DNA of 64,000 nucleotides from Candidatus Thorarchaeota archaeon (GCA_019057475.1 DXJO01000010.1:256001-320000); one strand, 5' to 3'. Shown: positions 5,265-20,306, counted from the stretch's first letter. Numbers and translations are program-made. The notes: generated by a model not told the origin, from the letters alone.

Positions 5265-8200
5265 CTATGCTACTATCTTCACTGGTTGCAGATTAACAAC
5301 TCGGTGTTCGCCTTCCACACTGTCGTATTCCACCATACCAACGAGCTCGCCCTCAGCGCCCGGCTGAAGCTCGAACTCAATCTCCACGACATTCATAGCG
5401 CCGGCCTCCACCGTGCCTATTGCCTCGCTTCTTATCGAGTCAGTAAGGTCCGGAACACCCAGTATCACTTGGACGTTCTGCATCGCGTTCTCCGAGCCGT
5501 TCCGTATCACCACTCCGAATACAACCTTGCCTTCACGGATCTTGTACTCTACCGCAACCTCCATGCCCGGTTCCAGACCAGGACTCGCAGGCTCTGCAGT
5601 CGTAACAAACTCCTCCACGAAGTACTCCTCGCGTACACGCTTCGTAACAATAGCTAGCCCTATCAGCAGACCCACAATCCCGGCCACAGGCACTACCCAG
5701 TGAACCGTTGGCATGAAGTCCGCTGCATCCAGAAGACCATCTCCGTCAGAGTCAGTGCTCAGAGGGTTCGAGCCGTACACGAAAATCTCGTCATAATCGC
5801 TCAGGGTGTCTCCGTCTGAATCCCATAGAGTTGGGTCTGTTAGGTAGACATTGTACTCCGCGCCATCGCTGAGGCCATCCGAATCTGTGTCGTTCGACAA
5901 GGGGTTCGTGTCGGATGTGAATATCTCAATGCTGTCACTCAAGCCATCCCCGTCCGAGTCGGCCGACGTTGGATCAGTGTGATGGGCAATAACCTCTTGA
6001 TAGTCATTGAGACCGTCAAGATCTGTGTCCGGTTTCCACGGGTCTACACCCAGGTCGACGTGCGTTATGACTTCATCGTAGTCGCTCAGACCATCCCCGT
6101 CTGAGTCAGCGTTTGTCGCATTGGTGTGGTATGTTTCAATCTCCATAAAGTCGGATAACAAATCTCCATCAGTGTCATTGCTCAAGGGGTTCGTTCTATG
6201 CTCGAAAATTTCTGGGCCATCCAAGAGGAGGTCTTCATCTGAGTCACTATTCAAGGGGTCCGTTCCAAGTGCTACCTCATAACCGTCTTCCAAATCGTCG
6301 TTATCTGAGTCTGGGTCAAGTGGCATTGTACCGTAGTCGCGCAGCTCCTCAAGGTTGCCCAGACCATCATTATCAGAGTCCCAATCATCATCAGATATCG
6401 TCGGTGAGAACGTGGTGTTCGTTGTCGGGTCTGTTCCGGTCAAGAAGACCTCTTCCCAATCCGTCAGAAGGTCGGAATCTGTGAAGTTGGAGAGCGGATC
6501 GCAGCCGTAGTCGAGTATCTCCTCCCCGTCTCCGAGACCGTCTCCGTCGGTGTCATAATCGAGGGGGTCGGTGAAGTAGTCTTCGACCTCTTCCCAGTCT
6601 GATAGGTCATCCGAATCTGTGTCTTCCTCTAGGGGATCTGTGCCATAGATGTGCATTTCATCACCATTACTGAGCCCGTCGTCATCTTCGTCGTCATTGA
6701 GGTCTGAAGTCCCGTCACCATCTGTATCCTTGATTCGCGGGTCGGTTTCTGTTAGGACGCACTCCTCCCAATTAGTGAGCAGATCTCTGTCCTCATCATC
6801 TGCCCCGTCTAGAGTGCCATCGGAATCTGTATCGTTAAGCCGCGGGTTCGTCAGCGTGAGCCGAATCTCTTGGCTGTTTGTTAGATTGTCTTCGTCCATG
6901 TCCCAGTCAGCATCCGATAGGCCGAACGGATTGCTGCTGTACAGGGTCGGGTCGGTCAGTGTCATATTGACTTCGTGATAATCGGTTAAACCATCGTTGT
7001 CCGAGTCTCTATCCCTCGGGTTGGTGAATACCAGTCTAAGTTCTTGCTGACCACTGGCATTGTAGAACTGCAGGAAGAAACCATTCACCTCTTGACCATC
7101 AAGGAGGAGATCCCCGTCGCTATCTTCCTTCAAGGGGTCTGTATTGTGGATGTCCAGTTCATCACCATCTCCGAGCCCGTCTCCATCAGAATCGTACTGG
7201 AGCGGGTCGGTTTCGAAGACCATGATCTCGTCGTAATCATTCAATCTATCCATGTCAGTGTCGGTTGAGTTCAGCAGAGTGTGGTACGTGAGAGCCTCCT
7301 CTCCATCCTCCAACCCATCGTCGTCTGTGTCTCTATCGTTGGGGTCACTGGAATAGAAGAAGAGCTCATCCCAATCCCCTAGACCATCTGCATCCGAATC
7401 CATGTTCCGTGGGTCAGTTTCACTGGTGAATATCTCGTAGAAGTCTGATAGTAGATCTCCGTCTGTGTCCAACAGGGTACAATTGGTTTGATACATGTAG
7501 ATCTCATCATGATTGTTGAGCCCATCGCCGTCCTCATCGTCAAGGTTGTCATCAATTCCGTCTCCATCCGTGTCTCTTAGGGTGGGGTCGGTGTGGCTGT
7601 TCCATATCTCGTCGTTATCTGCCAGATTGTCTCCATCTGTATCATCCAAGAGCGGAGAAGTTCCATAGATGTTCACTTCGTCGCCATCGCTCAATGAATC
7701 GAAATCTGAGTCTGGATTTTCAGGGTCAGTTCCCTCTTCCAGTTCCTCCTTATCGTTGAGTCCATCTCCGTCGACATCGGCTTCTGTGGGATCAGTCCCA
7801 TGAACCTGCCATTCATCCCAATCGCTAAGCCCGTCGCCGTCTGTGTCATTTGAGTTGGGGTTGGTCCCAAGTTCAATCTCCTGCTTGTCGTCAATCATGT
7901 CGCTATCGCTGTCTGGATTGTTGGGGTCAGTCAAGTATTCATTCACTTCATCTCCGTCCGAGTCCCAGAGCGTCGCATTGGTGAGCGAAACGTAGACCTC
8001 GTAGTAATCATCTAGGCCATCTGAGTCCGAGTCCGTTCCAGTCGGATTAGTATGGTAGATGATGTACTCCTCGTAATCACTAAGCCCATCGTTATCCGTG
8101 TCCATATCAGTCGGGCTCGAACCTGCGAAATTAACTTCTATGCCATCCCAGAGGCCATCTCCATCAGTGTCAGGGTTCGTCGCGTTTGAGCCGTAACCAT

Positions 8201-19125: not shown

Positions 19126-20306
19126 TAGGCAAGGGTTGGCTTCTTCGAGAAGACGAACGTGGCAGCTAGAATCGCAAGTACCGAAAAGCCAACGAGCTTG
19201 GCAATTGGAATCAACACATCGAAGAGATTCAGTCCTTTGAAGGCCGTATCAATGAGCACTTTCATGCCTTGGTTCATAGGTAGAAAGTCGTCTAGCATAC
19301 CCACGTCGATGAAGAATCCTGACAGTATTAGCGTGCCAAACATCAAGAACAGGAACATCTGGTTTGCCTGAAGACGAGACGATGAGAGGGATGAGATTAG
19401 GATTCCAGTGGATGATCCCGTTAGCGATGTTAGGCTCATAATGAGCACTAGGATTGCGAACTCTGTATTCAGCGTCAAGTTGAATGCAATAACCCAGAGC
19501 GAGACGAGGAGAAGTGATTGAAAGAAGCCGATTATGACGTAAGAAATCACTTTCGAAATAACAACCTCAAGCCTGCTGGTTGGTGTAAGCAGCATTCTTC
19601 GCAGAGGTATATCACCAACAATAGACTGAGCGGAAGTCATCGCAATGCCAAGGTAACTTGAGAAGATCACTATGAATCCCCCGAAGACGATTTCCACGTA
19701 CCCTCCCGATGGCATGAATTCAATCATCATGGCCGGGAACACTTCTGATTCAATCCAGAGATGCGTTGCCCGGAACATAATGGATGCCCCCTGAACTACT
19801 CCCATTACTGTCGACTGTTCAATAAAGTTGGTCGCGTCCACATGGACAATGACATAGGTTGGCTCATTCAGAGTCAGGTTTCTCTCGAATCCATCCGGAA
19901 TAACAACGTAACCCATGATCTCCTTGTTGTACATGTCTTGGTACGCGTCTGCTTCGTCTGTGTAGAAAATCAGCTGTTCGGCGAGCTCTTCTAGATAGCT
20001 TGTGAAGTTCTCCGACAGGTCTTCTCCCTCATAGGTTTCAATCGTGTCGTGGTCGATTAGGCCAATGATCGGTCCTCCCGTGAATTGTTCTGTGTCTTCC
20101 ATATCTCCCATATCACCCCCTCCCATTCCCGATAGGTCGTTTTCCTGGGTGACGTAATACAGCATTCCAATTGAAACTGCAGGAAGTAGGAATATCAAGA
20201 AGAGGGCAACTCTGTCCTTCACTATGAGCCGCAGCTCCTTAGCTATCATGTTTCGAATCCGTCGCGAAGGTTTAGTGAAGACCTCGGCCATGTTATGCTT
20301 CCTCAT
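19125..20306 (-). CDS. ABC-2 type transporter permease
   Basis: IAKELRLIVKDRVALFLIFLLP, extracellular loop with GYVVIPDGF, RMLLTPTSRLEVVISK, 5 C-terminal TM segments. Confidence 0.9.
   Translation of the reverse strand: MRKHNMAEVFTKPSRRIRNMIAKELRLIVKDRVALFLIFLLPAVSIGMLYYVTQENDLSGMGGGDMGDMEDTEQFTGGPIIGLIDHDTIETYEGEDLSENFTSYLEELAEQLIFYTDEADAYQDMYNKEIMGYVVIPDGFERNLTLNEPTYVIVHVDATNFIEQSTVMGVVQGASIMFRATHLWIESEVFPAMMIEFMPSGGYVEIVFGGFIVIFSSYLGIAMTSAQSIVGDIPLRRMLLTPTSRLEVVISKVISYVIIGFFQSLLLVSLWVIAFNLTLNTEFAILVLIMSLTSLTGSSTGILISSLSSSRLQANQMFLFLMFGTLILSGFFIDVGMLDDFLPMNQGMKVLIDTAFKGLNLFDVLIPIAKLVGFSVLAILAATFVFSKKPTLA

Follow-up and report, generated by a model that had tools for sequence, protein, structure and literature searches.

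Outside bacterial GldG, to our knowledge, no functional context in prokaryotes is well understood for the three eukaryotic GIFT-domain proteins IFT52, OST48 and S1P. GldG itself is thought to be a subunit for the ATP-binding cassette (ABC) transporter components GldA and GldF. In the GldA/GldF/GldG system of Flavobacterium and the related ABC_transp_aux family (PF09822), an ATPase, an ABC-2 permease and a membrane-anchored, extracytoplasmic GIFT-type protein are clustered. Here we describe a likewise clustered locus at positions 5265-20306 of a 64,000-nucleotide stretch of DNA from Candidatus Thorarchaeota archaeon (GCA_019057475.1 DXJO01000010.1:256001-320000; the whole stretch is hereafter the window), in which a permease and two ATPases are encoded next to a very large GIFT protein whose subtilase domain appears to have lost catalysis. 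We conclude that this exporter, together with the dead protease, is a real and previously undescribed membrane machine of several Asgard lineages. Its function is less certain; we favour a type-V ABC exporter that works with an accessory subunit outside the cytoplasm in the export or surface hand-over of a glycan-bearing or lipid-linked substrate, a reading that may well be right and could equally prove wrong.

Five consecutive minus-strand open reading frames (ORFs) fill the locus in an ORF scan:

19125-20306, minus strand: gene 1, ABC-2 (type V) permease, 393 aa (PF12698)
17425-19125, minus strand: gene 2, ABC ATPase 1, 566 aa (ABC_tran and Regulator_TrmB)
13023-17417, minus strand: gene 3, pseudo-subtilase/GIFT protein, type-I membrane protein, 1464 aa (Peptidase_S8 and IFT52_GIFT)
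12038-13030, minus strand: gene 4, ABC ATPase 2, 330 aa, GTG start (ABC_tran)
5265-12041, minus strand: gene 5, giant beta-propeller/TSP3 surface protein, 2258 aa (TSP3_bac and beta-propeller)

Read directly, the junctions are TAATG between genes 1 and 2 (1-nt overlap), TGA-GGGGGAT-ATG between genes 2 and 3 (a purine-rich gap of 7 nt), GTGTGTGA between genes 3 and 4 (8-nt overlap) and ATGA between genes 4 and 5 (4-nt overlap), a pattern that is a signature of translational coupling. The preliminary description of this locus, made from the sequence alone, had reported five co-oriented genes with such junctions, encoding one ABC-2 permease, two different ATPases and two large single-pass proteins with signal peptides and cytoplasmic tails, and had ascribed them to an Asgard archaeon. 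All of this is borne out: the ORFs and the junctions agree, each of the three transporter genes has its Pfam match, and hydropathy gives each large protein a single membrane span followed by a tail of 83 aa (gene 3) or 128 aa (gene 5). The attribution is supported by a TFIIB gene in the window and by the source name Candidatus Thorarchaeota carried by gene-3 orthologues; the window lies on contig C42 of an uncultured, metagenome-assembled genome of 3.34 Mb that is 96% complete (G000).

The linkage extends well beyond this genome. Among neighbourhoods of ~20 kb taken from 20 genomes, ten further genera of Thorarchaeia keep all five genes in the same order, as does the one genome of the sister family f2. 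Hodarchaeota (f14) have the order permease, ATPase 1, pseudo-subtilase/GIFT gene, ATPase 2, the giant gene being absent at the locus; in Freyarchaeum (f16) and in family f23, a block of ATPase 2, permease and ATPase 1 is divergent from the pseudo-subtilase/GIFT gene, with the giant gene again absent at the Freyarchaeum locus. The Loki-labelled families f21 and f22 (genus g60) carry two permease genes, ATPase 1 and the pseudo-subtilase/GIFT gene, without the giant gene at the locus, and one such Loki-type locus (G149) has a further ATPase gene just upstream. The co-occurrence in related genomes that the preliminary description had anticipated is therefore found, as the complete order in Thorarchaeia including f2 and as a clustered four-gene core in Hodarchaeota, Freyarchaeum and the Loki-labelled lineages. 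Moreover, ATPase 1 lies directly upstream and ATPase 2 directly downstream of the pseudo-subtilase gene in 27/27 additional Thorarchaeia loci with both flanks, which places the linkage far beyond chance.

The strongest argument that the genes belong together is the phyletic pattern. We searched 400 Asgard genomes, in which related genomes are not independent, with a profile of the single-copy TrmB-like extension of ATPase 1. Matches at E 1e-34 or better occur in f1 (79/85), f2, f14 (17/19), f15, f16, f17, f19 (1/2), f21 (10/14), f22 (4/135, all in genus g60) and f23; family f28 (3/3) gives weak matches (E about 1e-11) in short frames of 158-166 aa, and no other family among these genomes has the domain. 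Leaving f28 aside, the same ten families hold gene-3 matches better than about 1e-50, and co-absence extends to single genomes, with both the TrmB-like domain and gene 3 missing from G146 (g60) and G128 (f19). Since the two appear and disappear together even where the locus is rearranged or the genes are unlinked, it is very unlikely that the pseudo-subtilase and ATPase 1 are unrelated neighbours. A chance placement of an ordinary ABC-2 exporter for drugs or ions beside unrelated surface proteins might be expected from the numerous ABC-2 transporters of the host genome and from the closeness of the ATPases to the DrrA drug-resistance subfamily, but stop and start codons overlap, the linkage is kept across classes despite rearrangement and the phyletic patterns match family by family, so that this explanation is close to refuted. 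The literature on the GIFT domain in Asgard archaea and on GldG/GldF in archaea yielded no description of this system.

The transporter itself has well-defined parts. Gene 1 matches ABC2_membrane_3 (PF12698, 98.9 bits in Pfam) and, by hydropathy, has six transmembrane (TM) segments with an extracellular domain of ~160 aa between TM1 and TM2. Its profile matches the transmembrane domain of insect ABCH (ABCG23-like) structures (E 6.5e-14), which together with PF12698 places it in the type-V exporter class, and in profile searches the loop matches 3cni_A, the isolated extracellular domain of an ABC-2 permease. Orthologues of the permease are 64-70% identical in Thorarchaeia, 45% in Hodarchaeota and 24-28% in Freyarchaeum and Loki-labelled genomes. 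The extracellular loop also contains a Gly/Asp/Met-rich low-complexity stretch of the type G-D-M-G-(D/G)-L (window 19950-20130), a type that recurs in gene 3 as an insert in the dead protease domain just before the former Ser motif and in the linker before the GIFT domain; the stretches of both genes are weakly conserved among orthologues.

The two ATPases differ from each other. Gene 2 encodes a canonical nucleotide-binding domain (NBD; ABC_tran, 94.8 bits) preceded by an N-terminal extension of ~250 aa (window 18376-19125) that matches Regulator_TrmB (34.7 bits against a cut-off of 22.2, Pfam), and this TrmB effector-domain match is found in 10/12 ATPase-1 orthologues, in all classes. Gene 4 encodes a plain NBD (ABC_tran, 93.9 bits), which shares 37% identity with that of gene 2, and has a C-terminal DrrA-type extension; it scores 177 bits against the DrrA subfamily in NCBIfam, under that model's cut-off. 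Walker A, the LSGGQ signature, the Walker B-Glu and the H-loop are complete in 16/16 NBDs (9 ATPase-1 and 7 ATPase-2 sequences), indicating that both ATPases are catalytically competent, to judge by their motifs; since these are intact in both proteins of every lineage checked, a heterodimer with two working ATPase sites is expected.

Gene 3 is the most unusual component of the locus, and its features, in order from the N-terminus, are:

N-terminus, minus strand: signal peptide (signal-like segment)
aa ~54-150, minus strand: propeptide-like region (aligned to Pro-Tk-SP)
aa 165-458, window 16044-16925, minus strand: S8 domain, apparently dead (Peptidase_S8)
aa ~492-755, window 15153-15944, minus strand: galactose-mutarotase-like supersandwich (predicted fold)
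aa ~758-986, minus strand: two immunoglobulin (Ig)-like sandwiches (predicted fold)
between the Ig-like sandwiches and the GIFT domain, minus strand: Gly/Asp linker
aa ~1059-1247, window 13677-14243, minus strand: GIFT domain (Pfam, profile and fold)
aa ~1248-1350, minus strand: MG/Ig-like sandwich (predicted fold)
aa 1363-1381, minus strand: TM segment (hydropathy)
aa 1382-1464, window 13026-13274, minus strand: helical cytoplasmic tail, 83 aa (hydropathy and predicted fold)

The N-terminal part is a bona fide member of Peptidase_S8 (PF00082, 138.6 bits in Pfam), and its closest chain in the PDB is Pro-Tk-SP of Thermococcus (3afg, E 8e-41); because this alignment starts ahead of the mature enzyme, a propeptide-like segment is retained. 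The position of the nucleophile is Ala418 (codon GCA, window 16164-16166), and the oxyanion Asn is replaced by Asp311 (window 16485-16487). We compared the catalytic columns of 21 sequences from Thorarchaeia, Hodarchaeota, Jordarchaeales, Freyarchaeum and Loki-labelled genomes: the nucleophile is lost or variable (A/S/T/V/L/G), the oxyanion column is Asp in 21/21, including the few members with a Ser nucleophile, and the triad His or Asp is missing in several. These columns indicate that catalysis was lost before the lineages split and that the position has drifted since, and we conclude from them that the S8 domain of gene 3 is catalytically dead. The public annotations of gene 3, which read 'S8 family serine peptidase' or 'hypothetical protein', are thus misleading.

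A subtilase anchored by its C-terminus in a membrane machine has a precedent. In type VII secretion, the mycosin MycP is anchored in this way and serves as a structural part of the machine, and mycosin is the top NCBIfam match of the gene-3 S8 domain, at 101 bits against a cut-off of 279. MycP differs from gene 3 in being an active protease that lacks a GIFT domain, and homology with it is seen at the level of the S8 fold, as that with Wzt, discussed below, is at the level of the NBD fold. A parallel in domain order is S1P (MBTPS1), also a type-I membrane protein with propeptide, S8 domain, GATase-like/GIFT domain, TM segment and cytoplasmic tail. S1P is an active protease, whereas the gene-3 family has neither the nucleophile nor the oxyanion Asn, and the ~500-aa insert of supersandwich and Ig domains has no S1P counterpart; S1P is not among the 60 best PDB matches of gene 3, the nearest of which are Tk-SP and subtilisins. 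Against the Pfam family MBTPS1_4th (PF23090, cut-off 27), the Freyarchaeum orthologue scores 17.2 bits and a paralogue on contig C39 of the host genome 20.9 bits, with no match in gene 3; the family profile, however, does reach S1P (E 1.7e-6, see below). In domain architecture the parallel with S1P is real, whereas the S8 domain itself does not resemble that of S1P.

The C39 paralogue looks the more S1P-like of the two. It encodes 1072 aa (L058:8447-11665, plus strand) and is apparently active, as its His, oxyanion Asn and the Ser motif SGTSAS are present in the sequence; a GIFT/DUF4350/MBTPS1_4th-like domain follows directly after the S8 domain and precedes a C-terminal TM segment and a basic KRRKRR tail, which is the layout of site-1 protease. 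The gene clusters with three other S8 genes, without ABC genes. We also noticed very large S8 proteins (1574-1668 aa) whose S8 domain is split by a long insert, one near the Hodarchaeota operon (L049:1336-6060, plus strand) and another in the C39 subtilase cluster of Thorarchaeia (L058:2070-6947, minus strand). In the ESM Atlas, an S49 signal-peptide-peptidase domain is joined to a domain of the DUF4350/GIFT type in archaeal proteins from Bathyarchaeota and Thermoproteota, and with archaeal S49, Asgard S8 and S1P, protease-GIFT fusions seem to be recurrent.

An alternative is a mechanotransmission or signalling device. ATP hydrolysis would then move no substrate but drive a conformational change in the gene-3 ectodomain, in the manner of FtsEX or MacB/LolCDE, or else the ectodomain would be a receptor, in the manner of CspC, and would gate the ATPases through the cytoplasmic tail. 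That at least five Asgard lineages have retained a dead protease is in line with a role in binding or reception. CspC, a pseudoprotease receptor, is indeed among the weak NCBIfam matches of gene 3, besides the top, sub-threshold match to the structural subtilase mycosin; the 83-aa tail is conserved in every class and predicted as two long helices, and TPR genes recur beside gene 3. On the other hand, the permease belongs to the ABC-2/type-V class, which translocates in known cases, whereas the known mechanotransmitters are type VII. In addition, the propeptide-like region is kept and, in a dead enzyme, probably still lies in the cleft, leaving little room for a ligand there. We consider this role unlikely.

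Two pieces of gene 3 were folded using alignments of 21 orthologues. The model of aa 480-1035 (predicted local distance difference test, pLDDT, 80.8) shows the supersandwich and the two Ig-like sandwiches. The supersandwich matches the N-domain of glucodextranase (1ulv_A) with a VIA Z of 21.9 and a root-mean-square deviation (rmsd) of 3.7 over 238 residues, followed by the N-domains of glycoside hydrolase (GH) enzymes of families GH15, GH94 and GH65. This middle region has no PDB match at the sequence level and is informative by fold search alone. The model of aa 1036-1464 (pLDDT 81.1) contains the GIFT domain, the MG/Ig-like sandwich, a long TM helix and the two long cytoplasmic helices.

The GIFT assignment, already made in the preliminary description, is solid. 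Gene 3 reaches 28.3 bits against IFT52_GIFT (PF23355), above the curated cut-off of 27.2, and is also assigned to ABC_transp_aux/DUF4350 in this region in Pfam; its Jordarchaeales orthologue reaches 37.6 bits against ABC_transp_aux, where the cut-off is 34.7. The family profile matches IFT52 (E 1.1e-12) and residues 688-869 of S1P (E 1.7e-6), with WBP1 (E 0.15) and OST48 (E 0.41) well behind. Among PDB representatives, the best match of the GIFT model is the N-domain of IFT52 (5fms_A; Z 18.6, rmsd 2.4 Å, 178 residues, 18% identity), which makes IFT52 the closest solved relative by both profile and fold. IFT52 is cytoplasmic and part of IFT-B, whereas the GIFT domain of gene 3 is extracytoplasmic and membrane-anchored, and the protein has no other IFT52 domain.

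When the whole C-terminal model is compared, a different relative emerges. OST48 (6s7o_G) aligns with Z 15.9 over 316 residues covering GIFT domain, sandwich and TM segment, followed by Wbp1 (6c26_B, Z 14.3) and site-1 protease (8uw8_A, Z 13.8, residues 650-874, 21% identity), and the six top Foldseek chains are all Wbp1/OST48 (E 5e-11 for 7oci_G to 2e-9, 366-413 columns). In these non-catalytic subunits of the eukaryotic oligosaccharyltransferase, a GIFT-like domain, a beta-sandwich and a single TM segment follow in the same order as predicted for the C-terminal ~330 residues of gene 3. The module of gene 3 differs in being the tail of a 1464-aa protein, in being linked to ABC genes instead of STT3/AglB and in its additional 83-aa helical cytoplasmic tail. 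Three short GIFT-sandwich-TM proteins (P0142, P0154 and P0132), considered as stand-alone OST48-like forms, were set aside because they have no start Met and look like contig-end fragments.

This resemblance raises a link to N-glycosylation, in which the GIFT-sandwich-TM module would be the archaeal counterpart of OST48/Wbp1 and the ABC-2 transporter would flip or deliver lipid-linked oligosaccharide for AglB. Wzm/Wzt-type exporters do move lipid-linked glycans, and the proteins encoded by genes 3 and 5 contain 22 and 42 N-x-S/T sequons, respectively, in keeping with such a role. However, the full-length rmsd to OST48 is 12-13 Å, the profile matches are insignificant, and OST48_N (PF03345) has no match at E<=1 in the host genome and four further Asgard genomes, except for a sub-threshold 13-bit match elsewhere in one of them (G117). 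OST48 may also rank first by default, GldG-type proteins being without a solved structure, and neither AglB nor a glycosyltransferase is encoded in the cluster. Eme et al. 2023 (PMC10307638) reported divergent WBP1 homologues only in Heimdallarchaeia, and inferred Hodarchaeales as the archaea most closely related to eukaryotes. Taken together, the oligosaccharyltransferase link is highly improbable as an account of what the locus does.

The comparison with GldAFG is closer in organisation than in sequence. The preliminary description had proposed a GldAFG-like machine; the shared layout of ATPase, permease and GIFT protein stands, but membership in the family does not. Against the GldA equivalog TIGR03522 (cut-off 402.6 bits), genes 2 and 4 reach 99.8 and 133.3 bits, with DrrA-type models scoring higher, and the NCBIfam matches of genes 1 and 3 at E<=0.01 include no GldF or GldG model. 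The locus has two distinct ATPases, one with a TrmB-like domain, and an archaeal host; its gene-3 protein is about three times larger than GldG, includes fused dead-subtilase, supersandwich and Ig domains, and has a signal peptide and one TM segment where GldG has two. On sequence grounds, the system is GldAFG-like in layout and not a GldAFG member.

A GIFT domain by itself does not imply a GldG-like role; because GIFT/DUF4350 domains are promiscuous, it is the conserved linkage that counts. Profile relatives of the family include giant multi-GIFT proteins, and other GIFT-domain genes of the host genome (on contigs C26, C51 and C24) are not adjacent to ABC-2 permeases. Given the linkage, the single-pass protein of gene 3 is probably a subunit of the transporter, by analogy with the role of GldG. 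In a complex prediction, the permease and the C-terminal 429 aa of gene 3 gave a score of 0.00 (mark 0.32), a result that counts neither way.

Gene 5, the last gene of the Thorarchaeia operon, encodes a second surface protein with the following features:

N-terminus, minus strand: signal peptide
aa ~50-400, minus strand: FG-GAP-type beta-propeller (Beta-prop_CGLA, 46.7 bits)
after the propeller, minus strand: Asp-rich Ca-binding TSP3 repeats, ~1700 aa (TSP3_bac, 263.9 bits, 14 stretches)
aa 2109-2130, minus strand: TM segment (hydropathy)
window 5268-5651, minus strand: beta-rich cytoplasmic domain, 128 aa

The protein consists of 27% Asp+Glu and scores 384.4 bits (12 stretches) against CglD, the Myxococcus gliding adhesin (NF033765), a value that does not reach the cut-off of 400 and comes wholly from the TSP3 repeats. 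Its cytoplasmic tail is the best-conserved part, with 70% mean column identity among 11 orthologues against 52-62% for the whole protein among Thorarchaeia orthologues. No Pfam family reaches significance for the tail (best E 0.0049, seen in 1/11 members; one member matches Alpha_adaptinC2 at E 0.09), and it has neither a PDB sequence match nor a paralogue in the host genome. In language-model features, it lies nearest to the appendage domains of coatomer beta/gamma and adaptin (0.89, 188/256), which by the tool's calibration is a lead only.

These properties bear on the proposal of the preliminary description that a GldAFG-like machine assembles, positions, releases or moves the giant protein as a putative adhesin, in adhesion or a gliding-type surface motility. 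Gene 5 is translationally coupled to gene 4 through the ATGA overlap and holds its position in all Thorarchaeia genera tested and in f2; the conservation of its tail points to an intracellular partner, and the TSP3 score against CglD and the layout shared with GldAFG are also in line with the proposal. The score is repeat-driven and under the cut-off, no GldA/F/G equivalog is matched, and both large proteins bring their own signal peptides. What decides against the proposal is that the ABC/pseudo-subtilase core is kept in Hodarchaeota, Freyarchaeum and Loki-labelled lineages without gene 5 at the locus, so that assembling or moving the adhesin cannot be the conserved function, and we regard this reading as improbable. 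Across the ~20-kb neighbourhoods of the 20 genomes, gene 5 is confined to the order of Thorarchaeia, families f1 and f2; since the core is far wider, gene 5 is probably a lineage-specific client or co-expressed partner and not the reason for the machine.

We therefore return to the exporter with an extracytoplasmic accessory subunit, which builds on the four-gene core. The permease and the two ATPases would form a type-V exporter, with the gene-3 protein as its dedicated single-pass accessory subunit. The C-terminal helix of gene 3 would anchor a non-catalytic stack of carbohydrate-module-like domains above the permease, its conserved helical tail would stay in the cytoplasm, and the ectodomain would receive or hold the exported product. 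The TrmB-like domain of ATPase 1 may serve as a cytoplasmic sugar or substrate sensor. A precedent is Wzt of the Wzm/Wzt O-antigen ABC-2 exporter, in which an NBD likewise carries an extra domain, and this carbohydrate-binding domain selects the O-antigen substrate; the extra domain of ATPase 1 differs in being N-terminal and TrmB-like, and not a Wzt C-domain. In Thorarchaeia the operon also carries the giant Ca-binding propeller/TSP3 protein and a TPR protein, probably as clients or co-expressed partners specific to the lineage.

The nature of the cargo is the more tentative part of this reading. A glycan, glycolipid or lipid-linked oligosaccharide is possible, though somewhat less likely than not, and is suggested by the TrmB-type sugar-binding domain of ATPase 1, the supersandwich of GH type, a GIFT fold that OST48 and GH42-type enzymes also have, a GH-like neighbour of the operon and the usual cargo of ABC-2 exporters, which often move glycans and lipids. 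Several points weigh against the reading as a whole. The glycan proposal draws on fold resemblances and a language-model lead, not on conservation of a binding site, and the supersandwich also occurs in non-sugar settings such as YidC P1 (Z 14.9). No glycosyltransferase or AglB gene lies within the conserved cluster. Many secreted proteins with no relation to ABC systems contain GIFT/DUF4350 domains, for example cargo of the type IX secretion system (T9SS) and PEP-CTERM cargo. Contact between the gene-3 protein and the transporter is proposed from indirect evidence, and in Jordarchaeales (f15) and f17 the pseudo-subtilase/GIFT gene is not adjacent to ABC genes; an ATPase-1 orthologue is present elsewhere in these genomes.

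The operon is flanked by two conserved neighbours:

3473-4735, minus strand: TPR protein, cytoplasmic, 420 aa, candidate sixth gene, 529 nt downstream of gene 5 (Pfam TPR families)
20554-23001, plus strand: divergent neighbour, cytoplasmic, 815 aa (no Pfam family)

A TPR gene lies downstream of the giant gene in 7 Thorarchaeia loci and in f2 (28-53% identity), close to it in six loci and ~2-3 kb away in two. In Freyarchaeum and Jordarchaeales, too, TPR genes lie next to the pseudo-subtilase gene, as candidate orthologues at most. The 815-aa neighbour is conserved in the same divergent position in 7 Thorarchaeia loci (37-43% identity), and its Atlas features (0.96-0.97) are closest to six-hairpin glycoside hydrolases in rhamnosidase/trehalase-like clusters, a lead only. 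The interval separating gene 5 from the TPR gene contains a hydrophobic ORF of 94 aa (4873-5157, minus strand); none of 20 related loci has a counterpart, and the ORF was dropped.

Elsewhere in the window, a 999-aa surface protein (23228-26227, plus strand) combines a signal peptide with DUF7948, SBBP beta-propeller repeats and a single TSP3 repeat, and almost no tail follows its C-terminal TM segment; together with gene 5 it makes the neighbourhood rich in Ca-binding propeller proteins. The 771-aa protein encoded at 53604-55919 (plus strand) is a fusion of an FG-GAP/BBS7-like beta-propeller with a Ras/Rab-like small GTPase at the C-terminus, with BBSome-type Pfam matches (Beta-prop_BBS7, 60 bits, and BBS2_Mid, 45.6 bits, both with a cut-off of 27) and a Ras match of 156 bits. 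Within a stretch of low GC content (44320-49606; 0.38-0.42 against ~0.49), a NosD/right-handed beta-helix protein of 1176 aa that includes a PKD-like domain adjoins a 414-aa beta-helix protein; the stretch may be a foreign or fast-evolving island of surface proteins.

Operon structure and phyletic pattern thus tie a GIFT-bearing protein to a specific ABC-2 transporter in Thorarchaeia, Hodarchaeota, Jordarchaeales, Freyarchaeum and some Loki-type Asgard archaea. The locus also provides a clean example of a subtilase that has long been without catalysis, as its sequence indicates, and is nevertheless kept in a membrane machine. It is conceivable, although decidedly unlikely in our estimation, that the GIFT-sandwich-TM module shares ancestry with OST48/Wbp1 and the S8-GIFT-TM layout with S1P, in an Asgard glycan-handling machine that would deliver lipid-linked oligosaccharide outward; if true, the GIFT proteins of the eukaryotic ER lumen would have a concrete forerunner in archaea, together with a defined partner. 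The four co-expressible proteins offer a concrete handle on what an Asgard surface machine does.

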